A stretch of 59,883 nt of DNA from Candidatus Levyibacteriota bacterium (GTDB lineage: Bacteria > Patescibacteriota > Microgenomatia > Levybacterales > UBA12049), in the NCBI GenBank assembly GCA_016182205.1, contig JACOXW010000013.1, positions 1 to 59,883 on the forward strand. The letters run 5' to 3'. The notes under the pieces were generated by a model. That model was not told the DNA's origin, searched no databases, and saw only the letters and a program-made list of their open reading frames with translations. Below are positions 1 to 40,822 of this stretch, piece after piece. Both the position numbers and the translations under genes were made by a program. Position 1 is the stretch's first letter, and each line of letters begins with the position of its first letter.

Positions 1-99
1 ACGTATCCATGATTCTCTCAATCAGTTCCCCAAACGCCTTTTGTCTGGCGAAGCGGGATCCCGCTAAACGGGATGCGTTGGATTATTCTTTGCGGAAGA

Positions 100-480
100 T
101 CAGTTGGCAGGCTTGGGCTTTTCCCACTGCGTCCTGATGGACATCAGGATGATGGTGGTCAGAACACCCCCTACGACACCTCCGTACAGCATCTCGTTCC
201 TCCACGGCGGCCCGGCGATCAAGCCGATCAGACAGACGTAGGAGAAACTGAAAAAAACGCTGGCGAGGAAGAAGTAGGCGAAATGCCCCAGGTGATTGCC
301 GAAGGCCATTTGTCGCTGTGACAATGGCGGTTGTCCGGCCGCTTTGGTCATGCGCAACATCTGATCCTGACTGACCTCGGGATGCCCCCTGTAGAAATGA
401 CTCCAGAAGACCATCCCTAAGCCCATGCCAAAGGGAGCGATGACTCCCATCCAGAGAACGAACCACTGATCAAGCGACAT
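100..480 (-). CDS. hypothetical small integral membrane protein (high-GC block)
   Basis: 126-aa ORF with about 3 hydrophobic helices. AAGGAG Shine-Dalgarno (rc of 487-492) lies 6 nt upstream of the ATG. GC-rich codon usage matches neighbours 499-1643. Preferred over the overlapping + strand ORF 73-321. Confidence 0.5.
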   Translation of the reverse strand: MSLDQWFVLWMGVIAPFGMGLGMVFWSHFYRGHPEVSQDQMLRMTKAAGQPPLSQRQMAFGNHLGHFAYFFLASVFFSFSYVCLIGLIAGPPWRNEMLYGGVVGGVLTTIILMSIRTQWEKPKPAN

Positions 481-498
481 GACTAACTCCTTTCAGTG

Positions 499-1143
499 CT
501 ACTTTCGTGGTCCCAGCCTGGGATGTGCCGCCGGCGCATACTGCCTAATTCTCCTGATCCGGGAGACAAGCACACAGAAGTTGAACAGGAACAGGAACAA
601 CAACGTAAAGCTCATGACCGTCTCGGGCGAATACGGTAGGACGAGTGTACCTCCCAGACCTCCCAAAAGGAATACCAGCCTTCCAGGATAGCCCAGAAAC
701 CACCGATCGTCCCAGTTGGGGTGAATTCCCTTCTCCTCGGCCGAAGCCTTGGAGAATGAAACCAGAAACCCCAGACCGAGGGCAAGCAGACCTACGAACT
801 GCTGTTCTACGCTTGTAAAGTGCATGATGTAGACCATCGTGATGGCTATCCCGAAAATTACTTCGTTGAGCCGATCACAGAATGTGTCCAACCACGCACC
901 ATAGGCAGAAGCGGTCCCCTTAAGACGTGCCAACGGCCCGTCAAAAGCGTCAGCCAAAAACCCCACGATCAGAATCATGAGCGTAAGCGATACCGACCGT
1001 GTGGACATCAAAACGAAGCTGGCAGTCGTGACGATCACAACACCAGCCATCGTGACAACGGTGGGAGCGACACCAAGTAGCATAAGGAGACGGGCTCCCG
1101 GCTGCTTGAGGTGACGCTCGATCCACGGCATCGGACTACGCAT
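499..1143 (-). CDS. CDP-alcohol phosphatidyltransferase family protein
   Basis: Exact family signature DG-x2-AR-x8-G-x3-D-x3-D in DAFDGPLARLKGTASAYGAWLDTFCD. Polytopic membrane protein. AAGGAGG SD upstream. High-GC codon usage. Confidence 0.85.
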   Translation of the reverse strand: MRSPMPWIERHLKQPGARLLMLLGVAPTVVTMAGVVIVTTASFVLMSTRSVSLTLMILIVGFLADAFDGPLARLKGTASAYGAWLDTFCDRLNEVIFGIAITMVYIMHFTSVEQQFVGLLALGLGFLVSFSKASAEEKGIHPNWDDRWFLGYPGRLVFLLGGLGGTLVLPYSPETVMSFTLLFLFLFNFCVLVSRIRRIRQYAPAAHPRLGPRK

Positions 1144-1235
1144 AATTTCCTCCTTATCCTTTCCATGTCAAACATCTACCGCAAGATGATGGCGCAAAGA
1201 GAGAGGGCAGTCCCTCTTCACACCAACCGCCACGG

Positions 1236-1643
1236 CTATTGCTTCCGATTGTCCCAAGCGGCTTTGCGTTCCTTCCTTTCCGTAGCAGACCTCTCCCGTC
1301 TTGCCTTCTCCGCGACCTTCTCCTTGGCGTTATTGAGCAACCAGTCCACGCCGAGCGCCAGGAGCGGTGTAACCACGCTCAAAAAGCTAGGGAGCTTCAG
1401 AACGTCTGCCAGGAGCCAAGACAGGCCCGCTGCCAGGATGAGGTACAACCCGACATCAAGAATCAGATCGTTCCTCCCCTTGCTGCCCAGCATCGACAGA
1501 GTTACCAAGAGACCGACCACTCCGCCGAGCACCATTCCCATCCAGCCTTGCTGCTGAAGATGTCCGGCGCCGACGAACAAGCCGACCCAAAGGGGGACGA
1601 GATAGACTAGGGACGTTTTCAGTCCTTCTCTTTCTCGATACAT
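1236..1643 (-). CDS. hypothetical membrane protein with basic C-terminal tail (high-GC block)
   Basis: 135-aa ORF with 3-4 hydrophobic segments and a Lys/Arg/Glu-rich tail. Same strand and composition as 499-1143. Confidence 0.5.
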   Translation of the reverse strand: MYREREGLKTSLVYLVPLWVGLFVGAGHLQQQGWMGMVLGGVVGLLVTLSMLGSKGRNDLILDVGLYLILAAGLSWLLADVLKLPSFLSVVTPLLALGVDWLLNNAKEKVAEKARRERSATERKERKAAWDNRKQ

Positions 1644-2088
1644 AATGACTCCAAGTCAGTGATTTTGTATCTTCGCTCCTGCCCTAACACAGATTTCTAT
1701 GAACAATCACAGAAACTTGCGTCAAGCGAAGATGAACGGAGACCGACCAAGATTTAGGATTTAAGATATAAGATTTAAGAAAAACATGGAATCTTGATCA
1801 AACTGCGTTCATCTTCTCACAAAAGCACACCCCACTCGCATAAAGTTTTGTGAGGCAAGCCATCCGTAATTTCAAAGAGCCCTGCAAAGCAGGGTCTGGT
1901 TTCACCAGACAAGAAAGTGATGAGTATCAGATCTGAGTTTTAAGTAGCAATCACTCAATTCCCAAGCCCTGCAAAGCAGAGCGTTATGGATACTCAAAAC
2001 TAATAAGCGGATTCTATCACCAGTAAGCTGAGAAATCAAAATTATAGGATAAAGTGGACTCGAAAGGGCGCCCTGCCCACCATAACTG

Positions 2089-2162
2089 TGGCCATTAAAG
2101 GATTCGAACCTTTGACCTTTCGCATGTGAAGCGAACGCTCTAACCAACTGAGCTAAATGGCC
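2089..2162 (-). tRNA. tRNA-Val (anticodon CAC)
   Basis: Manual cloverleaf on the minus strand: acceptor GGCCATT/AATGGCC; D arm GCTC/GAGC; anticodon stem TTCGC/GCGAA with loop TTCACAT; T arm AAAGG-TTCGAAT-CCTTT; discriminator A; no encoded CCA. 74 nt. Confidence 0.9.
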
Positions 2163-8474: not shown

Positions 8475-9557
8475 ATGTATCACACTGTTTTCTCACCGAT
8501 GTTACCTATAAAATCGTTTTATCTTTATCTAACGTTGACACTTTTGACGCTTTTTACCATAATGACTGATACAATCACCTATCCGGGATTTCTGAAAAAA
8601 CATGTTCTACTAGACACAAATATTCTTTTCATTTTATTTCTTGTAACCAGCGTATACATTTTTTTTCTTCCGGGAAAGATAGATTTCAGCACATTACAAC
8701 CGATAAAAAAACTTAATTCTTTCATCTTACTGCCGGTTATAGCTGTTTTCACTTTTATTTTTACCTTTGCAGATTTCTTCCTCTATCCTAATTTTACCTT
8801 CAGCACTTTCCACATTCATTACTCACAGTTTCTTTATCTGCTATTAATAAGCACCGGACTTGCTCTAGTAACCATTGACAGACAGTTATTGAAAAGAAGA
8901 AAACATGCTTTAATTTTTTCCGGTGCGTTCTTCCTGCTTTTCATCGGAATTTGTATCTGGCTTTGGCCCAACGGAGCCTTTTTTGAGTTGAGCAAGGAAG
9001 ACCGACTTTTTGAAAATTTACAGTTTTTATTTTTCTCACTATCCACTATTCTTGCCGCACTTATAACCAAACATTTTTTCAACAAAGATCTAAAGCACAT
9101 AGCTATCCTCTTTTTTTTCATAACAATGTTTTTGTTTTTTGTTTCGGGAGAAGAAATAGCATGGGGACAACGGATTTTCCATATCGAATCCCCTGCTATC
9201 ATGAAGGAGAACAACACCCAGCATGAGCTAACACTGCACAACCTAAAAGCTATAAACCAATACCAATATCTTTTATACATGTTACTCGGCGCCTATGGAG
9301 CATTTTCATGGATAATTTCCAGCTTCTTTCCGTACAAGAAAATACGGGACTTCCTTCACAATATTTCAATCCCATGGTTTGCCGCACCGTATTTTTTGCC
9401 GATTTTTCTTTTCTATCTATACGTCAACTTTATAGGCGGTAAACGCTGGGAATGGCAAGAATTTTCAGAACTGCTGTTGGCACTAGGAATTACAATCTTT
9501 CTTCTCGTTACTTATATAGCATATAAACCTACTAAATTGAAATTACTTACCGGGTAA
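8475..9557 (+). CDS. hypothetical polytopic membrane protein
   Basis: 360-aa ORF, very hydrophobic (about 9-10 helices), host-like AT-rich codon usage. No motif recognised. Confidence 0.5.
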   Translation: MYHTVFSPMLPIKSFYLYLTLTLLTLFTIMTDTITYPGFLKKHVLLDTNILFILFLVTSVYIFFLPGKIDFSTLQPIKKLNSFILLPVIAVFTFIFTFADFFLYPNFTFSTFHIHYSQFLYLLLISTGLALVTIDRQLLKRRKHALIFSGAFFLLFIGICIWLWPNGAFFELSKEDRLFENLQFLFFSLSTILAALITKHFFNKDLKHIAILFFFITMFLFFVSGEEIAWGQRIFHIESPAIMKENNTQHELTLHNLKAINQYQYLLYMLLGAYGAFSWIISSFFPYKKIRDFLHNISIPWFAAPYFLPIFLFYLYVNFIGGKRWEWQEFSELLLALGITIFLLVTYIAYKPTKLKLLTG

Positions 9558-28811: not shown

Positions 28812-30002
28812 TTAGATATTTTTTTCTAGAGCTTTTTTAACCGCTCCAAATTCATCCCACGGTTCTTCGCCATTTCCATAATTCATCGATTTCTCATGCG
28901 CTTTCCCTGTTGTGATTACTAAATCGCCTTTTTGCGCTATAGAGATGGCTTTGGCAATTGCCTCTTGTCTGTTGGGAATAATAAGAAGCGTTCCGTTTTC
29001 CATGCGTTCTTGCGCATCTTTAATACCATTTATAATGTCTTTCATAATGGAATCAATTGATTCCGTACGCGGATCCTCAGACGTCAGAACAACAACATCT
29101 GCATATTTGGCAGAAATAGCTCCCATTTTGGGACGTTTTGTGAAATCTCTTTGTCCCGCACTGCCAAAAACGTGAATGATTCGCTTTTTTACCAGCGGCC
29201 GCAGCGCGCTTAAAACCTGCTCAAAAGAATTCGGCGTATGCGCAAAATCTATCATCACCGTAAAATCCTTTTTATAAACTATTTCTTCACGCCCAATCGG
29301 CGCCTCAAACGTCTCCACTCCTTTTCTAATGTCTGCATCGGAAATACCCAACTGCTTACAGACACTGACAGCAGCAAGACAGTTATAGGTATTGAACTCT
29401 CCGATGAGTTTTGTTTTGAAAGGAAAAGTATCAGTACTTATGTCTGATCCTTTGCTTTTTCCATATGTAATTACTGCTTTTTTCTTTTTCAGTAATTTAT
29501 TTATCAAATCATAGGATTCGTCGTCTTTATTTACAATCGCCAAATCTGCCCGCTGTAAGAGTTTTGCCTTTGCTTTTACATAATTTTTATACGTCTTATG
29601 ATAATCTAAATGCTCATGCGTGATATTGGTAATAACGCCAATGTTAAAGCGCACACCGTAGACTCTAAATTGATCCAATCCATGCGAGGTAACTTCCAGT
29701 ACGAGATATTCTGAAGCTTGTGATGCTTTTTTTATAAATCCCTGAAGCGGCCAGGAAGCGGGATTTGTGACATGAAACCCGACATCATATTCTTTTCCGC
29801 CAATAATAGCCCCAACTGAGGAGATCATTGATGCTTTCTTTCCAGACGTCTTGAGTATGTGATAGATCAAACTGACAGTCGTTGTCTTACCATCCGTACC
29901 GGTAACGCCTATCACTACCAATTTCCGGGATGGGAAACGGTAATAGATATTGGCCAAAAGGGCAGTAGCTAGGTGATATTGATTTTTTATCCACTGCCAC
30001 AT
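28812..30002 (-). CDS. murE: MurE-type Mur ligase lacking the N-terminal (UDP-binding) domain
   Basis: P-loop VIGVTGTDGKTTT already at residue ~32. DFAHTPNSFEQVL (MurE-type DxAHTP). C-terminal TGKAHE. Only 396 aa. Confidence 0.8.
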   Translation of the reverse strand: MWQWIKNQYHLATALLANIYYRFPSRKLVVIGVTGTDGKTTTVSLIYHILKTSGKKASMISSVGAIIGGKEYDVGFHVTNPASWPLQGFIKKASQASEYLVLEVTSHGLDQFRVYGVRFNIGVITNITHEHLDYHKTYKNYVKAKAKLLQRADLAIVNKDDESYDLINKLLKKKKAVITYGKSKGSDISTDTFPFKTKLIGEFNTYNCLAAVSVCKQLGISDADIRKGVETFEAPIGREEIVYKKDFTVMIDFAHTPNSFEQVLSALRPLVKKRIIHVFGSAGQRDFTKRPKMGAISAKYADVVVLTSEDPRTESIDSIMKDIINGIKDAQERMENGTLLIIPNRQEAIAKAISIAQKGDLVITTGKAHEKSMNYGNGEEPWDEFGAVKKALEKNI

Positions 30003-30060
30003 AGGTGTATTATACTTGTTTTTCTTTCAATTCACCATCTAGAAAACACCCTATAAGAAT

Positions 30061-30090
30061 TTGCTTGTCCCTGCATATTTCTGCTATAAT
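30061..30090 (+). promoter_or_regulatory. sigma70-like promoter TTGCTT-N18-TATAAT facing the foreign operon
   Basis: -35 at 30061-30066 and -10 at 30085-30090, in AT-rich host-like DNA about 195 nt upstream of the GTG at 30285. Confidence 0.4.
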
Positions 30091-30168
30091 GCCATCGCTT
30101 TCAGCAATTCTCACCAAGACGACGCGTCCTGGAATTTACAGAGGATTTTTGAAAGTGATCTTTGACAA

Positions 30169-30179
30169 GTGAGAGAGGA
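30169..30179 (+). repeat. left copy of an 11-bp perfect inverted repeat GTGAGAGAGGA
   Basis: The reverse complement occurs at 34236-34246. The pair brackets the three island genes. Confidence 0.35.
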
Positions 30180-30284
30180 ACTCTTGGTGGAGGAAGACTC
30201 ACGTCAACCGAAATCAAGAGAAACTTAAGAACAAGGAGGTAGAAGACATACTACCTGCGTATCTACAAGCGAAAGGAGTAGATC

Positions 30285-31406
30285 GTGTCGCAAAAACACC
30301 CGTGGGGAATTCGTCTCCGTGACAGGCTGAAAGAGTGGGGGCCAGAACATGGATACCCTCAGCTCTCAATTCTAGGAAGGGAGCTGGGAATTCCCGATTC
30401 ACCGTGGAACGATATCCGTTCTGCCGGTGCAATTATCGCCACCCCGAAAGATGCGTATGCGCGCATTTTCTGGAGGACTGGCCTTTCGGAAGCCGACCCC
30501 CGTTCTATACCACCTCGAGTCAGAGCCTTCCCCAAAGGAAGTAGCAGGGAAGAACCACGAGCGTGGTCTCAGAGCCAATGGCAAGAGTGGGTGAGGAAGG
30601 AATCAAGCAAATACAGCCGCGGCTCAGGTGTACAACCCGAAGCCACAGACACTTCCAAACCTTTACTCTCCCCTCCAACCGAGCCCGTCATGCCACAAGC
30701 GGAGCCACAACTACCTGTCCATGAGACAGGCTTTGTTGACGAGCTCCTCGGTCTGTTCGGCAAGCACATCGCGCGTGCAGCAGCTCCACATATTGTCTCC
30801 GAAATCGAGCAGGCGCTTAAACGCCAATTCGATGAGCGAGAACGGTTTGTGGAAGTAGCAACGCACGCAGTCGCCGAGGTAGTACCGAGTCTGCAGGCAG
30901 TCATCGAGAGAGTGCGAAGCGAGGGCGAACAAACCCAAACACAAGCATTCCCGACTGACGCCGTCGCAGACGCGGTCGCCAAAAGCCTCATCCAGTACCT
31001 GGAGGAGCAGGAAGTTCCTAACCGCCAGGGGAAACCGACCCTTTTGAGCATAGGAGACCTGGCTGAGGAGTTGCATAAGCAACTTAGCGAAGCTGTTGAG
31101 GCAAATGAAGGAGATCAACGAGATCTTCTCACCTCATACGGCATCGAGCTCAGCAGACTACTCCCATTACTAAAGCGACTGCTCAGCAAACAAGAAGAGG
31201 AGGCGATGTCCCACGACACAGCAAGCAGGTTGGATCGTCAACTCGGAGTGATTCTCAAACGGGCGCTGAATGGTACCCCTGAGGATCGCGATGAGTTCAC
31301 CCGTCGATACGGCCGGCTCGGAAGGCACGTTCCCGCACTGGAAGTGCTCACACGAGACGACCGTGAAGGTCGCGAGAACGCAGTAGCGTTACTTGCAAGG
31401 AGCTAG
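30285..31406 (+). CDS. island gene 1: hypothetical protein with N-terminal HTH-like segment, Pro/Ser-rich linker and helical C-terminal domain
   Basis: GTG start with GGAG SD (30275-30278). 373 aa. N-terminal IRLRDRLKEWGPEHGYPQLSILGRELGIPDSPWNDI resembles an XRE-type HTH (tentative). No catalytic motif seen. Confidence 0.7.
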   Translation: MSQKHPWGIRLRDRLKEWGPEHGYPQLSILGRELGIPDSPWNDIRSAGAIIATPKDAYARIFWRTGLSEADPRSIPPRVRAFPKGSSREEPRAWSQSQWQEWVRKESSKYSRGSGVQPEATDTSKPLLSPPTEPVMPQAEPQLPVHETGFVDELLGLFGKHIARAAAPHIVSEIEQALKRQFDERERFVEVATHAVAEVVPSLQAVIERVRSEGEQTQTQAFPTDAVADAVAKSLIQYLEEQEVPNRQGKPTLLSIGDLAEELHKQLSEAVEANEGDQRDLLTSYGIELSRLLPLLKRLLSKQEEEAMSHDTASRLDRQLGVILKRALNGTPEDRDEFTRRYGRLGRHVPALEVLTRDDREGRENAVALLARS

Positions 31407-31408
31407 GC

Positions 31409-33355
31409 ATGACCAGCTATACAGGCAAGACCTCGATCAGCCCAGCCCATGCCATCATGCACCTCGCACGACTACAGGTGGGCGTGGTACCGGTGGCTGA
31501 AGAGGCTATCGACAATGGCGTCGATGCCGAAGCTACGACCATCTGGCACGTGATCGAGCCAGGCCGGATGATGATCATCGATAACGGCCACGGCATGCTG
31601 TCGACCATGTTGGCAGCTGATGCTGACCTGCTGCAGGAGCTCTGGCAGAAGAAGCTGTCAGGAGAACTGCCAGCGGACTTTGACGTCCGTTCACAGATTT
31701 CCCCAGCGTCGCGCCGGAGTCTGCAGTGGATGCAGGAGTCAATCGGGTTCAGCGCAAAGCTTCCTGATGAGCGTGATACGCTTGGGACAAAGGGTCTCGG
31801 CGGCACGGTCTCGTGGAGAAGTGTAGCGCGGCGAGCTGTTTGGACAACTCGTCCCAACGACGAGCTGGCCGCAGCTATGCCAGATCTCGCTTCGCCGACT
31901 CCTGTCTGGCGCATGGAACCACCCACTGCTGAACAGCTTGCGCGAGGAGATCTTGACTACTCAATCGTCGAGGTTTCTCCGAACGCTTTGCAAAACCCGT
32001 ATGGTGGCGTTCTCGCCTCAGGCACAGCAGTCGAAATCATGGATCTTGACCCGGAAGCAGAGCGGGGCCTTCGGCCAATGGCGTTTGCGGAAGCCTACCG
32101 TATGCGCTATGGAGGCTTTGTGCGCGCTGGTCGGATCACGATTATCATCGTCGACCGCGTCACTGAAGAGGGTCGCAGAACACCAAATGGACGGGAGATT
32201 CTCGTTCAGCCCTCTCAGTATAGAGGAGCTGTCATCCTCGAGACCGAAATACGCGTTGGCAAGTACACCGCGCGCATTGAGCTCTTCTATGATCCCAAGG
32301 GACGCGGCACCTATCCGTTCCTTCGTCGCCAAGGGATCGATCTCAAGACCACCATGGCAGTGCTCGTCTCAGAGCTCCCGCTTCTTCGCGGTCCACTCAT
32401 TAGTGGAAAGCTTTCAGGTTTCGTCGCGTTTCCCAACGCGCCGGATACCGAGGCGCCCTGGACCACGGACAAGCTCAAGCCGCTGGATTCTCCTCTGCGC
32501 AGCCAATGGGAGCGAGCAGTTGCTTCGCTCATCCCAGATCTTGAGGCTGCCATGGAGGCGATGGACGAGAAAGTCCGAAGCCGACAGATGGAGACAGTGA
32601 CCAAGCAGGTCACTGATGCTGCACTTGAGGCGATCGGGGATTTGGAAGCCTATCAAGGCATCCTGCCTAATCTCGTACGAAATCGCACATCAGGCAAGAG
32701 CAAGAGCAAGAAGAAGCGCCAACCGCGGCCCTTGGATAAGGTGATCGCCGTCGTTCGCAACGAACATAACATGGGCGTTGCCGGCGCGATTCTGGAACTC
32801 CACCGCGGTATAACATGCGTGAACCGGTTGGTGACCGGACCAGGCGGAGTTATCTCCTTTGGTAAGCAGCCTCCTGGCCGCTACCGGATGAAGTTGACTC
32901 CACCAAATGGGGCAAAAGTCCGCGCTGGTGAGGACACCTTCGTCTTCAATTTAAGCCCCAACCAACCGGGCTGCCGGATTCCATTCCATGTGGTAACCGG
33001 TGAACCGGCTCCACAACGGCCAGGCAGGCTCCCTAAGCTGGAGCTTTGGCTCCACCCATGGGAGAATGTTGGCGAACCATTCCGTGCTGATCGGCTCGCC
33101 AGATACGGCCAAGTCGAGATCAACGAGCAGCACGACGCAATCGCAGAGGCATATCGCCGAAGCGATGAAGAGCGTGTGGCCACACTGACTGCGCTTTACA
33201 CCAGTATGGCGCTTGCTGGTCATGCCTTCCATGGCACACCAACATCAGTGGTCAATGCGCAGGCTGCAAGCCTTTTCAACCGTATGCTGGACATCACACT
33301 CCAGGATATGGAGACAAGGCAGCGAGCGCAGGCTGCTCGCCGAGGCCGGAAATAA
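31409..33355 (+). CDS. island gene 2: GHKL-superfamily (MORC/MutL/HATPase_c_3-like) ATPase with C-terminal beta-sandwich-like module
   Basis: Bergerat-fold motifs in order: E32-x3-N36-x2-D39-A40 (EEAIDNGVDA); D58-x-G60-x-G62 (IIDNGHGM); G126-TK-G-L-G-G132; GTAVEIMDL. AAGGAG SD. Start is 2 nt after the gene-1 stop. Residues ~445-520 follow a CarboxypepD_reg-like pattern (GVAGAILEL...GPGGVISFGKQPPGRYRMKL). Confidence 0.8.
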   Translation: MTSYTGKTSISPAHAIMHLARLQVGVVPVAEEAIDNGVDAEATTIWHVIEPGRMMIIDNGHGMLSTMLAADADLLQELWQKKLSGELPADFDVRSQISPASRRSLQWMQESIGFSAKLPDERDTLGTKGLGGTVSWRSVARRAVWTTRPNDELAAAMPDLASPTPVWRMEPPTAEQLARGDLDYSIVEVSPNALQNPYGGVLASGTAVEIMDLDPEAERGLRPMAFAEAYRMRYGGFVRAGRITIIIVDRVTEEGRRTPNGREILVQPSQYRGAVILETEIRVGKYTARIELFYDPKGRGTYPFLRRQGIDLKTTMAVLVSELPLLRGPLISGKLSGFVAFPNAPDTEAPWTTDKLKPLDSPLRSQWERAVASLIPDLEAAMEAMDEKVRSRQMETVTKQVTDAALEAIGDLEAYQGILPNLVRNRTSGKSKSKKKRQPRPLDKVIAVVRNEHNMGVAGAILELHRGITCVNRLVTGPGGVISFGKQPPGRYRMKLTPPNGAKVRAGEDTFVFNLSPNQPGCRIPFHVVTGEPAPQRPGRLPKLELWLHPWENVGEPFRADRLARYGQVEINEQHDAIAEAYRRSDEERVATLTALYTSMALAGHAFHGTPTSVVNAQAASLFNRMLDITLQDMETRQRAQAARRGRK

Positions 33356-33378
33356 CGTATCCGCCATCCGGGAAGGAG

Positions 33379-33410
33379 GTTGAGGATCCATCCTCAACTT
33401 TCCTTTTCCC
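33379..33410 (+). terminator. intrinsic-terminator-like hairpin between island genes 2 and 3
   Basis: Perfect 8-bp stem GTTGAGGA-tcca-TCCTCAAC (33379-33398), extendable by G-U pairs, followed by CTTTCCTTTTCCC. Confidence 0.4.
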
Positions 33411-33432
33411 GAGTGTAAGAGGGAGGGTCCAG

Positions 33433-34113
33433 ATGGACCAGGTAGACCCAGTACAACAGGCCCGACAGGTCATCGCCAACATGGAAAGCATGATCGGTGG
33501 CTTGAAGGTTCCCCGAGATCAACTGAATCAGCAGATACGGCGACTGGAGGACTCGCGCCGGCGTCTACAGCAGCAGCTACGGGATCTCGAACACGCGAAG
33601 CGATCAGATCCTCCAGATGTCCTCAAGATCGTACGCGAGACTACTGCGTACATGGTCGAAGTCGCGGCTGAGCTAGAGCAACTCTATCAGCCACCGGCTG
33701 GAACTCGCCGTCGGGGTACTTCTCGTGCGCCGGCGTCTGTAGGTGAGAATCCGATACCGCCAAGCGGTGGTCCGGCAGGTGATACACCACCGGTAATTCA
33801 CCTGCGAGAAATTGCCCCTGTCCCTCGGAAGGTGCTTTCCCTTTTGGCTAAAGGGAGTACCCCTCCAGCAACACTGGATGAAGCCATCCTGGCTGCCTAC
33901 CCTGAAGGGCTCAGTACACCCGAAAAGCTTCTGAAAGGAGGTCTCTCGGGAGCGATCACAGGCCTGATTCGGCTTCGCAATAATCCAAGCGAGGTGGAAT
34001 CGGCGCCGACGCGCCTTCGCCAGCTCTACAACGAGCTTGGTCTTCCAGGTCGTTGGGAAGAGGTCGAAACAGCGCTTCGACAATGGGGTGTTCTCAAGGA
34101 CTCAGCCGCGTAG
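33433..34113 (+). CDS. island gene 3: hypothetical coiled-coil protein with Pro/Gly/Arg-rich linker and helical C-terminal domain
   Basis: GGAGGG SD. 226 aa. Heptad-like N-terminus (QLNQQIRRLEDSRRRLQQQLRDLEHAKR). No enzymatic motif recognised. Confidence 0.65.
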   Translation: MDQVDPVQQARQVIANMESMIGGLKVPRDQLNQQIRRLEDSRRRLQQQLRDLEHAKRSDPPDVLKIVRETTAYMVEVAAELEQLYQPPAGTRRRGTSRAPASVGENPIPPSGGPAGDTPPVIHLREIAPVPRKVLSLLAKGSTPPATLDEAILAAYPEGLSTPEKLLKGGLSGAITGLIRLRNNPSEVESAPTRLRQLYNELGLPGRWEEVETALRQWGVLKDSAA

Positions 34114-34128
34114 CGGCAAACAAGAGGG

Positions 34129-34164
34129 AGCCTGTGATGGTTCAAAGGCGAGCTGTCACAGGCT
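34129..34164 (+). terminator. hairpin downstream of island gene 3 (possible terminator, no U-tract)
   Basis: 9-bp perfect stem AGCCTGTGA / TCACAGGCT with an 18-nt loop (3 further pairs with G-U), 16 nt after the stop. Confidence 0.3.
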
Positions 34165-34235
34165 ATTCCTCGAGAAAGAACTCGAAATCGTAAGCCAATT
34201 TGCAGGCTTATACCTTTCATTTTCTTTCTCATCCA

Positions 34236-34246
34236 TCCTCTCTCAC
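34236..34246 (-). repeat. right copy of the 11-bp inverted repeat (TCCTCTCTCAC on + strand)
   Basis: Reverse complement of 30169-30179. Confidence 0.35.
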
Positions 34247-34301
34247 TGTTTTTTCTTACGGTTTAAGATTTTTCTTGAAAAGTAAGGAGAAATACGAAAA
34301 G

Positions 34302-35941
34302 CTATTCAGTTGGGGGTATGTGGGTCAGAATGTCTTTTGCGATGTTGAAAAAAATAGGTGCTGCGGTTTCCGAGCCGTAAATAGATGTTGTCGGACGATC
34401 CACCACTACAAGCATTGCGAATCGCGGATTATCAGCAGGAGCAAATCCGATAAACGACGCGATTGTTTTATCCGCATCATAATGTCCTGAGATAGGAATC
34501 TGGGCAGTTCCGGTTTTCCCGGCAATTCGATACCCTTTTATCCGTGTCCACTGCGCTTCACCTTTATTTACCGCGTTCACAAGCATTTCTGTCATTACTT
34601 TCGCAGTGGCCCCAGAGATTGGCCGATCCAGTATTTTTCAATTTTTGAAACCACATGCGGCTCCATACGGTATCCTCCATTTGCGATAGCTGAAAAGCCG
34701 CTTAAAAGACCAATCGGTGTTACGGAAATCCCCTGTCCAAACCCGGCCGTGGCCAGATCTATCGGGTACCACTCGTCTCTTTGACGCAGTCCGGGTGCGA
34801 TCTCACCCTGAAGATCAATGCCCGTTGCGTCTCCGATCCCGAATTTATGAAAATAAGAAAGAGTCTTATCAAGTCCCATTGACTTTACTACATACACCAT
34901 ACCGGTATTGTCCGAATGCTGAATAACTTCTATCATAGAACTATTCTCTCTATACTTGTTATTCCAAGTACGTATTTCATATCCCCCAATCTCGATGGGT
35001 TTTGCGCAAATAGGACATTTAGTATCCGGCTTTACTGTTTTACTATCTATTCCCGAAGCCATAACAAGTGCCTTAAACGTAGATCCCGGCTCGTAAACAT
35101 TGGTGATAAACGGATTTTTATAAAGGCTCCCGTCATACTCCTGATAGTTACGTTGATCAAATGAGGGGTAATTCGCAAGGGCTAGAATATTCCCACTCTT
35201 AGGATCTATAACGCCCACCATTCCGCCTACGGCACCGTATTTTATAATTCCTTCCTCCAGTTTTTTTTCTACAGTATACTGAATCGCCCGATCAATACTG
35301 AGCACCAATGAACGACCGCTTTTCTCTCGTATATTATCGTTTCGCCTAGATACAATCGGTCTTCCCAGCGCATCACGAATCTGAATAGTGGTAATTGTTC
35401 TGCCCTTTAACTGCCTGTCATAATATCCCTCTAGCCCAAAATAACCTTTATCTTCTCCCAATTCATCTTTTCCCACAAAACCCAATAGCTGTGCTGCCAT
35501 AGAGCTCTCAGGATAAAACCGAACTGACTCTTCCTCAAAACCCACGCCAGGAAAATGCATTTGCTCAATTTTTTCTTTTACTTTTTCATCAACCCCGCGT
35601 TTTATCGGTACCCAAAATTTGTCTTTTTCCAACTGTGCACTAATGGATGCCCTGTCTTGTTGCAATAAATCCGAAAGAAGCAATGTTGTTTTCTCTTTTT
35701 CTTTTATTTCTTTAGGATTAGCATAGAGTAGATAGGAAAGTTTGTTTGTTGCAATAGGAAACCCGTCGGATGTTTTAATTTCGCCTCTTTTGGCCGAGAG
35801 TGTAATAACGGTACCATATTGTGATTTTCCAAGCGTTGACAATTCATCAGCTTTTACCACTTGCCAGTAGAATAAACGGACGATAATGAAAAAAAATGAA
35901 AAAACAAAGAGGAAAAAAGTTATTTGTAATCTTTGCGTCAT
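34302..35941 (-). pseudogene. ftsI: FtsI/PBP2-type class B penicillin-binding transpeptidase, interrupted by a 1-nt frameshift
   Basis: N-terminal TM helix. SxxK (GSTFK) and SxN (HSDN) lie in the 448-aa ORF; KTG (AGKTGTAQ) lies in the 97-aa ORF. The frames rejoin if one A is added to the A5 run (rc of 34634-34638), giving ...HVVSKIEKILDRPISGATAKVMTEML... This could be a sequencing error. Confidence 0.85.
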
Positions 35942-38302: not shown

Positions 38303-40822
38303 CTAGCGTATTTTGCCGGTGATATATGAAGCAATATCCAAGCACTGTATGCGCACCTGCTGCGTAGTATTCCTATCACGAACAGTAACCGTATCATCCT
38401 CAAGCGTTTGGAAGTCAATGGTAATGCAATACGGCGTTCCAATTTCATCTTGCGCCAAGTATCGCTTTCCAATATTTCCTCTATCATCAAACATAACAAG
38501 CCCTGAAATATTTTGTTTTAAAGTTTTATAAACAGACTGTGCTTTCTCTACCAATTCAGTTTTATTGGCTAAAAGTGGGAACACTGCTACTTTTACTGGC
38601 GCAATTTGTGGTTGAAGCTTCAAAACAACACGATTTCCTTGTCCTTCTTCCTCATAGCTGTCAATAAGTGCCATGAGAAGTAATCGATTGATACCAACCG
38701 CAGGTTCTATCACATGAGGTTTTATTTTCTTGTTTGTTTGTGGATCGATAATGCGAAGTTCTTGTTTTGAAAACTCTTCATGCTGCGACAGATCGTAATC
38801 TGTTCTATAAGCCAGCCCCCATAACTCTTTGTAACCAAACGGAAATTTATATTCTAGATCTTCAGTTCTTTTGCTATAAAAAGATCGTTCTTCATCTGTG
38901 TGTGGCCGCCACCTGAGATTTTCTTCACGAATTCCCAGCTCTCTTGTGACGAAATCCCACATCGATTTCTTCCATGCTTCAAATAGCTCTTCCCAATTAG
39001 AGGTCTCAGGATCGAAAAAATACTCAATTTCTCCCTGTTCAAATTCTAATGTTCTAAAAACCGAATTTCCCGGCGTTATTTCATTTCGGAATGATTTTCC
39101 AAGTTGCGCAATGCCAAAAGGAAGCCTGACTCGCGTTGAATTGACAACATTGGCAAAGTTGATAAACATCCCCTGTGCTGTCTCCCCACGAAGATAAGCC
39201 AAAGATTGGTCTCCCTCAACAATCCCCATGTGAACGGGAAATAATAAATTAAACTTTCGAACTTCAGTCCACTTATCACCTTTATTCTCTGAGCAATTTG
39301 GGCAAGAAATCTTGTAAAGTTTAATAATTGCCTCCATTTGTTCTGTATTTGCTCCTTCTACTTTCATAGTTTCCTTCATCTGTCTAATGATTCCTTCTCC
39401 AATTGACCTTTTATCCTCCTCGGAAACATCAGATTCTAATTTATCAAGATTTGCAGAGATATAATCCTCAATTAAATGATCCGCTCTAATCCGTAGTTTA
39501 CAATTTTTACAATCCACCAAAGCATCGGCAAAACCTGTTGCGTGCCCTGAGGCTTTCCAAACTTCCTGATGAGATATAAGACTGGCATCAAGCCCAACTA
39601 CGTCGTCTCGTTTATGCACGAAGAAGTCCCACCAAAGATTTCGGATATTTCGTAAAAGCTCAGCTCCCATTGGCCCGTAATCATAGGTATAAAGCGCTGA
39701 CGCAATTTTAATATTTTCCAGTTTTACGAATTCGTTTGCCATATGAGCAGTATCTTCGCCTTCATCCATCGAATGTACAAGAGTAGGTATACCATAAAGG
39801 GCCAGGTGTTTTGCGTCAGTAATTCCTCCCATCGTCCCAATGTGGATTTTTCTCCCAAGCTCTTTTGCAGAAACAAGAAATGCCTTAACTAGCTCTGAGT
39901 CTTTACTGGTAAGATGCGAAGGCATATATAAAGAGTCTTCGATTTCTATTTTTGCTTTCTTATTCTTTGCGATAAATTCCTTACACAATGATTCAACCCT
40001 TTCCGTAATATCTTCTTTTTTTAAAGGATACGGAAATCTTATATCTACTTCTGCCTCAGCATATGCTGGCACGATATTGACAGCGTGTCCCCCTTTAATT
40101 ACACCGATATTACGAGTTACACCTGAAAACAACGGATCATAGGAAAGATCCTTTAAGGAAAGCGATTCTAACTCATTGAGAAAAGAAATCAAATAACTGA
40201 TGGCATTAATCCCATGCTCAGGAAGCGATCCATGAGCTTGTTTACCGTAACTTTTTACCGTATAACGTACTACTCCTTTCTCTCCAATAATAATCTTATT
40301 GAGGTGTCCGCCATCAGGAACTATCGCGTAATCTACACGAAAACCTTTTGCCAGCAAGTATTCAACTCCTTTTTCAGAACCCATCTCCTCATCCGCACAT
40401 CCCAAAAGGTAAATAGCACCGGTAAGCTTTTTATGAGTTCTCAAAAAAGTCTTAATAGCAAGCCATGATGATACAAAATTCCCTTTACAGTCAATCACTC
40501 CTCTTGCGTACAACTTTCCGTCTTTCTCAGTCGGTTCAAATGGATTTGTCTTCCATCCATCTCCTGCAGGAACTGTATCCAGATGAGGGAAAAATCCAAT
40601 TGATGGTTTTCCATTACCAATTTTCCCGATGAAATTTGCCCGTCCTTTTTCTTTCTCCACAATTTCAACTGTCATACCAAGCTTTTCGTAGGCTTCTTTG
40701 ACAATTGGTTCAAGCGCTATTTCGTTTCCAGGAGGATTAACGGTATTTACTTTCACAAGGTCTCTCAGCAACTTAACCGCAAAGTCATAATCTTTTTGCT
40801 CAATAGTCATCGAGAGTATCAT
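38303..40822 (-). CDS. glyQS: fusion ORF: M20-family metallopeptidase (ArgE/DapE-like) joined in frame to glycyl-tRNA synthetase (alpha2 type)
   Basis: Residues 1-~372 carry M20 motifs HLDTVPAGDGW and ARGVIDCKG. From YDYGPMGAELLRN onward it is canonical GlyRS, with class II motif 2 FRNEITPGNSVFRTLEFEQGEIEYF and a C-terminal anticodon-binding domain. One uninterrupted 839-aa frame. Confidence 0.85.
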   Translation of the reverse strand: MILSMTIEQKDYDFAVKLLRDLVKVNTVNPPGNEIALEPIVKEAYEKLGMTVEIVEKEKGRANFIGKIGNGKPSIGFFPHLDTVPAGDGWKTNPFEPTEKDGKLYARGVIDCKGNFVSSWLAIKTFLRTHKKLTGAIYLLGCADEEMGSEKGVEYLLAKGFRVDYAIVPDGGHLNKIIIGEKGVVRYTVKSYGKQAHGSLPEHGINAISYLISFLNELESLSLKDLSYDPLFSGVTRNIGVIKGGHAVNIVPAYAEAEVDIRFPYPLKKEDITERVESLCKEFIAKNKKAKIEIEDSLYMPSHLTSKDSELVKAFLVSAKELGRKIHIGTMGGITDAKHLALYGIPTLVHSMDEGEDTAHMANEFVKLENIKIASALYTYDYGPMGAELLRNIRNLWWDFFVHKRDDVVGLDASLISHQEVWKASGHATGFADALVDCKNCKLRIRADHLIEDYISANLDKLESDVSEEDKRSIGEGIIRQMKETMKVEGANTEQMEAIIKLYKISCPNCSENKGDKWTEVRKFNLLFPVHMGIVEGDQSLAYLRGETAQGMFINFANVVNSTRVRLPFGIAQLGKSFRNEITPGNSVFRTLEFEQGEIEYFFDPETSNWEELFEAWKKSMWDFVTRELGIREENLRWRPHTDEERSFYSKRTEDLEYKFPFGYKELWGLAYRTDYDLSQHEEFSKQELRIIDPQTNKKIKPHVIEPAVGINRLLLMALIDSYEEEGQGNRVVLKLQPQIAPVKVAVFPLLANKTELVEKAQSVYKTLKQNISGLVMFDDRGNIGKRYLAQDEIGTPYCITIDFQTLEDDTVTVRDRNTTQQVRIQCLDIASYITGKIR

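Follow-up and report, generated by a model that had tools for sequence, protein, structure and literature searches.

A predicted GHKL-S5 ATPase of a new family encoded in a horizontally acquired three-gene cassette of Patescibacteria

Introduction

What kind of system is a GC-rich block of three genes, one of them coding for a GHKL-type ATPase, that interrupts the dcw (division and cell wall) cluster of a patescibacterial chromosome? The question is raised by contig JACOXW010000013.1 (assembly GCA_016182205.1), of which a stretch of 59,883 nucleotides (nt), hereafter the window, was analyzed; it comes from a metagenome-assembled genome (MAG) of Candidatus Levybacteria, in the Microgenomates group of Patescibacteria. 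Between murE (28812-30002, minus strand) and ftsI (34302-35941, minus strand), in a dcw cluster otherwise encoded entirely on the minus strand, lie three plus-strand genes, here called A, B and C, which with their non-coding ends form a cassette of about 4.2 kb (roughly 30080-34250). The cassette stands out as a stretch of ~4.1 kb with 55-60% GC in a contig of ~38-40% GC. Its central gene, B, had been singled out in an earlier prediction made from the sequence alone (the original prediction), which read it as a GHKL ATPase carrying a beta-sandwich.

Prokaryotic GHKL proteins with an S5 domain of the MORC and paraMORC type are predicted DNA-manipulating parts of conflict systems; MORC proteins proper are defined by the S5 motif GhXhhpXXRhl, and paraMORC1-5 by operon neighbors (superfamily II helicases, nucleases of the restriction endonuclease or HNH fold, DNA methylases) or by C-terminal extensions (restriction endonuclease-type nuclease, TIR, HxH) (Iyer, Abhiman & Aravind 2008, PMC2292703). 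The B protein is a new family within the known GHKL superfamily, the paraMORC proteins being set apart from it by their description. In the literature that we searched there was no mention of GHKL together with Patescibacteria, and the whole system, with its two novel partner proteins, inverted boxes, leader, hypervariable interior and insertion in the dcw cluster, appears to be undescribed there.

Results

Gene B and its catalytic motifs

Gene B (31409-33355, plus strand) is an open reading frame of 648 amino acids (aa) with exactly the coordinates originally predicted. Its ATG at 31409 has an AAGGAG Shine-Dalgarno sequence 7 nt upstream, the stop codon of gene A lies 2 nt earlier, and alignments with homologues begin at residue 1; the gene call for B in the Logan assembly, which starts at M17, is probably too short. 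An exhaustive HMMER search over 1.84 billion representatives returned 148 hits, 87 of them below 1e-30 and nearly all of these 620-700 aa long. The relatives, about 100 of which are full-length, are 22-39% identical to B of the window and correspond to ~100 clusters at 50% identity, which makes the family rare; below it in the HMMER list nearly all remaining matches are to immunoglobulin (Ig)-repeat proteins. A word-indexed homologue search returned only the query, whether it was started from the single B sequence, the B alignment or the alignment of A. One member carries the NCBI name 'ATP-binding protein [Candidatus Woesebacteria bacterium]'.

In a family alignment of 84 members, from which all residue counts are taken, the four GHKL motifs that the original prediction had read in B occupy the most conserved columns: motif I (ExxxNxxD) with E32, N36 (84/84) and D39 (81/84); motif II (DxGxG) with D58 (72/84), G60 (83/84) and G62 (84/84); motif III (GxxGxG) with G126 (83/84), G129 (75/84) and G131 (83/84); and motif IV (GT) with G205 (84/84) and T206 (82/84). 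Position 32, that of the catalytic base, is filled by Glu in 48 of the 84 proteins and by Gln in 32, including those of loci L007 and L016; the L007 protein additionally has Gly at the position of D58. A Glu-to-Gln change at the GHKL catalytic position is the classic hydrolysis-dead, ATP-trapping substitution. Judged from these residues, naturally 'ATP-locked' or non-hydrolysing variants of B appear to be common, and since Gln fills the position in so many members, nucleotide-dependent closure, not turnover, is suggested to be important in much of the family.

The stretch between motifs II and III had been described as an insert of ~60 residues. This size was overstated, as part of the stretch is the normal ATP lid, which usually takes up ~30-35 residues in MutL and Hsp90. 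The ~30 residues in excess of it are conserved rather than random. They make the lid longer than that of MutL and include two family-specific residues, S115 (84/84) and K117 (75/84).

Predicted structure and domain architecture

A model built by AlphaFold2 from the single B sequence was unusable (pLDDT, the predicted local distance difference score, of 35), whereas the 84-sequence alignment gave a good one (pLDDT 94.9, predicted TM-score 0.82). In this model, with approximate boundaries and all coordinates on the plus strand, a GHKL domain (residues 1-240, nt 31409-32128) is followed by an alpha/beta transducer/S5 domain (residues 241-360, nt 32129-32488; strands at 244-249, 274-294, 304-315 and 334-341), by long helices (residues 361-411, nt 32489-32641; two helices at 362-411), by a basic linker (residues 412-444, nt 32642-32740), by a beta-sandwich (residues 445-550, nt 32741-33058) with seven strands at 445-450, 461-466, 469-475, 481-483, 490-497, 510-516 and 522-529, and by a helical tail (residues 551-648, nt 33059-33352) with helices at 576-583, 587-606 and 612-647. 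The only lower-confidence part of the model is the lysine-rich stretch of the linker (residues 421-440, pLDDT 66-69). Each of the modules proposed earlier downstream of the ATPase, namely an S5-like middle domain, a lysine-rich linker, a CarboxypepD_reg-like sandwich and an alpha-helical tail, thus has its counterpart in the model.

Comparison of the model with the PDB by Foldseek gave matches of probability 1.00 to structures of the Hsp90 family, MORC2 and MutL: TRAP1, GRP94 and Hsp90 at E-values of 1.7e-13 to 1e-11 with 11-14% identity, MORC2 with DNA at 1.8e-11 (target-normalised TM-score, TMt, 0.50), and the MutL fragment LN40 at 2.2e-11 (TMt 0.61). With 420-470 columns, the alignments cover the GHKL plus S5/transducer region (MutL LN40, MORC2, and the N-terminal and middle domains of TRAP1), and their scores do not separate Hsp90, MORC2 and MutL from one another. 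The Bergerat fold of B is supported by the model, by these matches and by a Pfam HATPase_c_3 hit above the cut-off. Membership in the GHKL-S5 subclass follows from the fold alignments together with K355, a residue after the last transducer strand that is present in 83 of the 84 members. We take K355 to be the gamma-phosphate-sensing lysine of the GHKL-S5 class, which would contact ATP; its counterparts are presumably K307 of MutL and K337 of GyrB.

For the beta domain, the B-family profile matched the SdrD B-domains at E=2.7e-13, NOMO2 at 9e-6 and UafA at 1.4e-5, and the single B sequence matched Pfam SdrD_B at E=0.047 only. This profile likeness and the ~7 strands place the domain among the SdrD_B/CarboxypepD_reg-like sandwiches, as had been supposed. 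The same segment also matches tandem repeats of giant proteins, of which there are 25 in the protein P0088. Throughout the family the linker is rich in Lys, Arg, Pro and Gly, and the C-terminal tails are Arg-rich. A nuclease motif was considered in the tail near the invariant N572 and was rejected: conservation there is limited to N572 and G567, and therefore the tail has no HNH- or MutL-like metal site.

Family assignment and comparison with known systems

The profile and fold searches proposed in the original prediction did not place B in any characterized family, in agreement with its statement that none could be assigned. The sole Pfam family to pass for B is HATPase_c_3, and it does so barely (28.2 bits, the cut-off being 25, with only residues 31-66 covered). 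The AlphaFold2 model confirmed the sandwich, and Foldseek gave no confident known family. Profiles for HisKA/DHp, the MutL C-terminal domain, HSP90 and Toprim in Pfam and NCBIfam had no match in B, consistent with the earlier observation that no histidine-kinase dimerisation, MutL C-terminal or Toprim motif is readable. Similarly, PADLOC-DB v2 gave no family for B and only noise for A and C (E>=0.02), PHROGs gave for B only a match of E=0.003 over the motif I-II stretch, and phmmer of B against PDB sequences had no match.

Individual families were rejected on specific grounds. A sensor histidine kinase is at odds with the sub-threshold score of the corresponding Pfam model HATPase_c (12.7 bits against 26.4), the lack of a HisKA-type match and the N-terminal rather than C-terminal position of the GHKL domain. 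For MutL, NCBIfam TIGR00585 reached 10.5 bits where 180 are required, with only residues 29-64 covered, and there was no Pfam MutL_C. The likeness to Hsp90/HtpG is at the level of fold only, with no match to Pfam HSP90 (PF00183) at E<=1. B is not a MORC protein proper, as its S5 strand reads GKLSGFVAFPN and the family consensus GxLxGxIxFP has no conserved Arg. The paraMORC1-5 groups do not fit by their descriptions, since neither A, B and C nor their immediate neighbors in 12 loci include a helicase, nuclease, methylase, TIR or HxH domain. The ATPases of type IIA and IIB topoisomerases (GyrB, Top6B) were dismissed in the absence of Toprim, Top6A, DNA_gyraseB and Topo-VIb profiles in A, B and C. 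On the sequence data, B is a predicted, probably active ATPase of the MutL/MORC/Hsp90 type outside the described families.

Likenesses to several systems remain. With MutL LN40 (PDB 1b63/1nhh), which has the best target-normalised TM-score for B (0.58-0.61), B shares the GHKL plus S5 transducer architecture over the first ~330-420 residues, a match of the B-family profile to MutL motifs I-II at 4e-8, and K355 after the transducer sheet where we would expect K307 of MutL; unlike MutL, it has no C-terminal dimerisation/endonuclease domain or motif, and no mutS lies nearby. The Hsp90 family (TRAP1, GRP94, HtpG) gives the best Foldseek E-values (1.7e-13), with alignment through the N-terminal and middle domains, and has a similar overall plan of N-terminal ATPase, middle domain, charged linker and C-terminal helical region. 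In contrast to Hsp90, B carries an Ig-like sandwich, lacks a Pfam HSP90 match, is only 11-14% identical, and has its gene in the operon of a horizontally acquired cassette, next to those of two novel partners. Topo VI-B of Methanosarcina mazei has an extra C-terminal Ig-like domain, and its order of GHKL domain, transducer with a long helix at its end, and Ig-like domain would resemble that of B; topo VI-B is, however, outside the top 50 PDB fold matches of B, and in neither A nor C could a Spo11/Top6A-like partner, Toprim or 5Y-CAP domain be detected.

The likeness to MORC and paraMORC1-5 (PMC2292703) includes a GHKL domain with four motifs followed by an S5 domain with a conserved basic residue, the HATPase_c_3 match, family-specific C-terminal extensions and a patchy, laterally transferred distribution, and the Foldseek match at 1.8e-11 is to human MORC2-DNA complexes. 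B differs from them in lacking GhXhhpXXRhl, in the absence from the protein and its operon of a superfamily II helicase, restriction-type nuclease, methylase, TIR or HxH domain, in its partners (two unannotated small proteins), in its C-terminus (Ig-like sandwich plus helical tail) and in its patescibacterial hosts. Finally, residues ~445-530 resemble the SdrD B-domain, Cna-B and CarboxypepD_reg sandwiches, by the profile matches to SdrD, NOMO2 and UafA; unlike in SdrD-type surface adhesins, where such domains form tandem repeats, the sandwich of B is single-copy in a cytoplasmic-looking ATPase without a signal peptide.

The A-B-C operon and its hosts

The order A-B-C was found in every retrieved contig with a B homologue and both flanks, with the exception of one two-gene A-B variant. 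This variant (L026, L027 and L028, the P0024 cluster) has no C; it retains a box-like sequence ACAAGGGAGAGAA upstream of A, and TTCTCTCTCAC is located 31 nt after B and followed by a T-run terminator. The operon is present in Levy-, Woese-, Wildermuth- and other Patescibacteria, and the translation of B is coupled to that of A. From the sequences of A, B and C neither a signal peptide nor a membrane segment can be read.

Gene A (30285-31406, plus strand, 373 aa, GTG start) is homologous in all loci that cover the 5' side of B. Its N-terminal domain of ~100 aa is conserved, with 11 invariant residues, W18, W41, Y58, A59, T65, E69, D71, P72, P76, A93 and W94 (the Trp residues, put at four, are three in this list), and because of this domain the GTG at 30285 is the real start. 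The domain is followed by an acidic/helical variable middle and, at the C-terminus, by the conserved module 'GTxEDRDxF...'. In the window protein this module, as 'G(T)xEDRDxF...L', is present twice, and in A of L015 (8751-9977) it is the N-terminal domain that occurs in duplicate. In NCBI, A is annotated only as a 5'-truncated product of 238 aa (HYT10_01560, 'hypothetical protein'). It had no Pfam, PDB, PADLOC, NCBIfam or PHROG match. A helix-turn-helix (HTH) domain of the XRE type in A is unsupported, with no Pfam or PDB match and hhalign probabilities below 1% against the N-domains of the P22 C2 and 434 repressors.

Gene C (33433-34113, plus strand, 226 aa) is homologous in 10 loci. Its N-terminal region is coiled-coil-like, a basic/Pro-rich linker follows, and the C-terminal domain closes with a conserved W-G (W218, G219); the linkers of C are basic across the loci. 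Searches with C returned only coiled-coil noise in Pfam and PDB and no NCBIfam, PADLOC or PHROG match.

By record labels, the hosts are Wildermuthbacteria, Woesebacteria, 'Saccharibacteria', the Patescibacteria group and Levybacteria, and three MAGs with the cassette are labelled Gammaproteobacteria or Pseudomonadota. One of these three, L015, has ~40% GC, and the genes neighboring its cassette have no Pfam match. No copies were found in phage, plasmid and viral sets by tblastn of INPHARED, tblastn of PLSDB and one pattern-limited scan of IMG/VR.

Foreign composition and variable insertion sites

The cassette exceeds its flanks in GC content at every locus measured, and both synonymous sites and amino-acid composition show the excess. 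At third codon positions the GC content (GC3) of cassette and host, respectively, comes to 0.57 and 0.34 in the window, 0.62 and 0.30 in L007, 0.67 and 0.48 in L005, and 0.45 and 0.29 in L015; L010, with 0.40 and 0.41, is ameliorated. An independent Logan assembly of the run SRR12113383 (L001) spans both junctions of the window cassette at 99.8% identity, and thus the GC-rich island is not chimeric.

The chromosomal site varies. The cassette is found between ftsI and murE in the window and L007, at ftsI|tRNA-Glu...cation ATPase in L005, between a GT2 (glycosyltransferase family 2) gene and a LiaF-like or acyltransferase gene in L010 and L016, next to a sortase gene in L006, between a nucleotidyl-transferase gene and the region upstream of rpoB in L008, and between rpmE/prfA and rpsB in L023. 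Three of these sites (window, L007 and L005) adjoin ftsI. The window and L007 share one ftsI-murE intergenic site, in which the cassettes have opposite orientations; the nucleotide similarity of the hosts stops at ftsI and resumes in murE. The host proteins of the window are 50-67% identical to those of L007 and 32-44% to those of L005, with B at 31% and 33%, respectively, so that the similarity of B is uncoupled from that of the hosts. The foreign base composition, the varied sites, the uncoupled similarity of B and the opposite orientations are evidence that the cassette is horizontally acquired.

Integration linked to tRNA genes is unsupported, since a tRNA adjoins the cassette in L005 only, where tRNA-Glu(CTC) (8948-9023, minus strand) lies between ftsI and the cassette of a 'Saccharibacteria' MAG. 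At the Rfam gathering threshold the window contains tRNA-Val only. Directly upstream of its start, beyond the cassette, murE retains its own -10-like element, AAGTATAAT in the window (29990-30030) and GATTATAAT in L007 (10200-10237), and thus insertion of the cassette need not silence downstream dcw genes.

Conserved ends around a hypervariable interior

The orthologous loci L010 and L016 form the basis for a comparison of cassette ends with the interior. Their neighboring genes are ~70% identical at the amino-acid and 69-75% at the nucleotide level. The 5' leader is 92% identical (198/216 nt), and the 152 nt after C, with the hairpin and the right box, are 87.5% identical. Proteins A, B and C, by comparison, are 39%, 31% and 31% identical, and the coding DNA of the cassette has no detectable nucleotide similarity. 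The similarity of the two loci stops ~7 nt past the right box. Two histories would account for this: exchange at the conserved ends, with replacement of the coding block, or very fast evolution of that block under diversifying selection between constant ends. Block exchange and diversifying selection are both typical of conflict loci.

At the left end, an extended -10 promoter-like element TGCTATAAT (30082-30090, plus strand) reads towards gene A. In 9 of 11 loci A is preceded, at 63-295 nt, by a TGnTAnAAT-like element; a generic promoter scanner made no call at TGCTATAAT, as there is no -35 element there. A 45-nt promoter-leader stretch is common to the window and L007, where the adjoining host gene differs (murE versus ftsI). 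The promoter is therefore part of the cassette, which leaves the left box in a subterminal position. The long 5' leader of the operon (30097-30284, plus strand) is predicted to be structured, with an RNA fold of -58.9 kcal/mol (z=-3.4) that none of 200 shuffles equalled. Layouts of a hairpin plus a box recur across loci, which hints at a conserved RNA or DNA structure in the leaders. In those of the window (30094-30159), L002 and L015, a 5'-proximal hairpin around UUUUGAAAG precedes a mostly unpaired purine-rich box, and the complementary pairs that bracket the box differ between the window and L010/L016 (CACCAAGA/UCUUGGUG versus CCUAUCAAG/CUUGAUAGG).

The conserved box GTGAGAGAGG is located upstream of A in at least five host lineages (window, L002, L010, L015 and L016), and the B proteins of the cassettes sharing it are only 22-39% identical among themselves. 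In the window, the left box or inverted-repeat arm TTGACAAGTGAGAGAGGA (30162-30179, plus strand) has the core AGTGAGAGAGG at 30168-30178, and the right arm (34236-34248, minus strand) reads TCCTCTCTCACTG on the plus strand. The two contain a perfect 12-nt inverted repeat, AGTGAGAGAGGA at 30168-30179 with its complement at 34236-34247. Taken alone, this repeat is no better than the best shuffles; the 11-mer core has only two sites in the window, even with one mismatch allowed. In L010, L015 and L016 the left box is 92-183 nt upstream of A and an inverted copy is found 107-166 nt downstream of C, which with the window makes four lineages. Both arms of L006 read ACGAAAAGAGAG and have thus changed together. 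Degenerate versions of the box are present in L007, L008 and L026, and none was found in L005, L012 and L023, where the repeat was looked for; clear inverted repeats were found in ~5 of 11 loci. A role of the box as a sigma-70 -35 element (TTGACA...) is unsupported, as there is no consistent -10 element at 16-18 nt.

Gene C is followed by a hairpin read from the sequence, GCCTGTGA...TCACAGGC (34130-34163, plus strand), which is terminator-like and lacks a T-run. Its arms CCTGTG/CACAGG are common to the window and to the T-run terminator hairpins of L010 and L016. Read-through of the transcript to the right box would allow 5'-3' pairing of GUGAGAGAGG with CCUCUCUCAC. As for the features of a transposon or insertion sequence, inverted repeats are present, the left one subterminal, no target-site duplication is seen, and no transposase domain was found in A, B and C.

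Other features of the window

The ftsI gene of the window is split into two open reading frames of 448 and 97 aa. Compared with L001, which encodes an intact penicillin-binding protein of 559 aa, it is short of 31 nt around 34636, which direct repeats of ATTTTT flank in L001, and of 6 nt around 34319, close to the 3' end; this is strain variation, a pseudogene or an assembly error. A second GC-rich stretch (52-58% GC) occupies window positions 1-1650 at the contig start, near tRNA-Val (2088-2162, minus strand); it contains a CDP-alcohol phosphatidyltransferase gene (499-1143, minus strand) and small hydrophobic open reading frames and may be another acquired island, cut by the contig end. An 839-aa reading frame (38303-40822, minus strand) fuses an M20 peptidase (Peptidase_M20 and M20_dimer) to a class II aminoacyl-tRNA synthetase core with an anticodon-binding domain, and the synthetase counterpart in L007 is a separate gene of 433 aa.

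Discussion

The reading that we prefer, and hold tentatively at rather less than even confidence, is that B may act as an ATP-gated dimeric clamp of the MutL/MORC type on nucleic acid and that A-B-C may be a horizontally exchanged conflict or selfish module. By analogy with its class, B would dimerise constitutively by way of its C-terminal helical tail, its N-terminal GHKL domains would pair on binding of ATP, and K355 of the transducer would sense the gamma-phosphate; because of this combination we propose that B closes as a clamp. Nucleic acid is proposed as the ligand because the linker and tail of B and the linker of C are basic. The Ig-like sandwich could be a docking surface for A and/or C, with the helical tail aiding assembly. 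In the members with Gln (~38%), the functional output would be the ATP-locked closed state and not turnover. The module might serve in defence against mobile elements or in addiction and self-maintenance, being exchanged among Patescibacteria, and its ends (promoter, structured leader, GTGAGAGAGG box and inverted copy) might be regulatory elements, recombination anchors, or both.

Several observations weigh against this proposal. Profile searches recognized no nuclease, helicase, methylase or other effector domain in A, B and C, no PADLOC model matches the cassette proteins, and there is no recombinase or transposase to explain the mobility of the cassette. The neighbors are housekeeping or envelope genes (dcw, glycosyltransferase and ribosomal genes) and form no recognizable defence island; moreover, defence islands are usually AT-richer than their host, and the A-B-C cassette is GC-richer. 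The best Foldseek E-values belong to protein chaperones of the Hsp90 family and not to DNA enzymes, and the guess of an HTH domain in A found no support in Pfam or in hhalign against two phage repressor domains. 

Other explanations share part of this evidence. The cassette might itself be mobile or invertible, the inverted repeats being recombination sites and A, B, C or a host recombinase acting in trans as the machinery; B would then be a regulatory ATPase like MuB, TnsC or IstB, or else the 4-kb segment would flip as a phase-variation switch. Inverted repeats that share one core recur in several hosts, lying at fixed distances to the outside of A and C. This speaks for such an element, as do the joint change of the L006 arms, the end of L010/L016 similarity ~7 nt past the right arm, the variable chromosomal sites (three of them adjoining the ftsI 3' end), the opposite orientations at one site in related hosts and the foreign GC3. 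We nevertheless consider it unlikely: A, B and C have no signature of a DDE, HUH, serine or tyrosine recombinase, no target-site duplication was seen, all assemblies of the same cassette have one orientation, and clear repeats are confined to ~5 of 11 loci. Furthermore, the promoter and ~85 nt of leader, which travel with the cassette, lie outside the left arm, and the repeats are therefore not strictly terminal. The abrupt jump in GC content from ~0.40 to ~0.57 over ~4 kb could also point to an assembly or binning chimera. This can hardly be credited and was rejected, since the SRR12113383 assembly confirms both junctions independently; in addition, more than 10 other assemblies carry the cassette embedded in a chromosome, in two cases at ftsI/murE or beside ftsI, and the junction DNA has two promoters, that of the host murE and that of the cassette, one to each side.

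Two further explanations were weighed. B could be an Hsp90-like chaperone or remodeller that serves envelope or division proteins of Patescibacteria together with its co-chaperones A and C, in keeping with the best fold matches to full-length Hsp90, TRAP1 and GRP94, with the frequent envelope neighbors (ftsI/murE, GT2 glycosyltransferases, LiaF-like protein, sortase, a VTT/DedA-like protein, acyltransferase) and with an SdrD-B/CarboxypepD_reg Ig-like domain typical of surface proteins. Such a role looks improbable in the absence of a Pfam HSP90 match and of a signal peptide or membrane segment in A, B and C, the more so as Foldseek does not separate Hsp90 from MORC2 or MutL and other loci are in ribosomal and translation gene contexts; a housekeeping chaperone, moreover, would not have a foreign GC3, occur patchily, stand in inverted orientation or be only 31% identical between orthologous sites. 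We see an equally poor chance for a vertically inherited, fast-evolving function in chromosome maintenance, whether MutL-like repair or a MORC/condensin-like nucleoid organiser, with the boxes as autoregulatory operators. The GHKL-S5 architecture with its best target-normalised fit to MutL LN40 (TMt 0.61), the basic DNA-binding-like segments, the recurrent dcw-adjacent position and the strongly conserved leader are compatible with it; the NCBIfam MutL score (10.5 bits versus 180) without a C-terminal endonuclease match, the rarity of the family (~100 clusters at 50% identity in 1.84 billion representatives), the GC3 excess of up to +0.32 and the uncoupling of B similarity from host similarity are not.

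A bolder reading would take A-B-C as an undescribed, Patescibacteria-specific element without a recombinase, in which the boxes and the leader would be exchange, inversion or loading sites and the GHKL clamp B, often E-to-Q 'ATP-locked', would be the motor or switch of a new mechanism of DNA transaction or immunity, with a preference for the intergenic region at the 3' end of ftsI. We give this reading a small chance.

The Patescibacteria, or Candidate Phyla Radiation (CPR), account for a large share of bacterial diversity and have tiny genomes, and very little is known of their mobile elements, immunity and genome dynamics. Here a compact module with its own promoter, leader and boxes recurs in several CPR classes, inside an otherwise rigid cell-division operon, and shows the unusual pattern of near-identical non-coding ends around protein genes that are only ~30% identical. 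It offers a new, structurally well-predicted branch of the MutL/MORC/Hsp90 class with natural Glu-to-Gln variants at the catalytic position, two partner protein families without known domains, and a means of testing how CPR bacteria exchange DNA horizontally. If the cassette turns out to work in defence or mobility, its mechanism would be an additional one that operates without a recognizable nuclease or recombinase.

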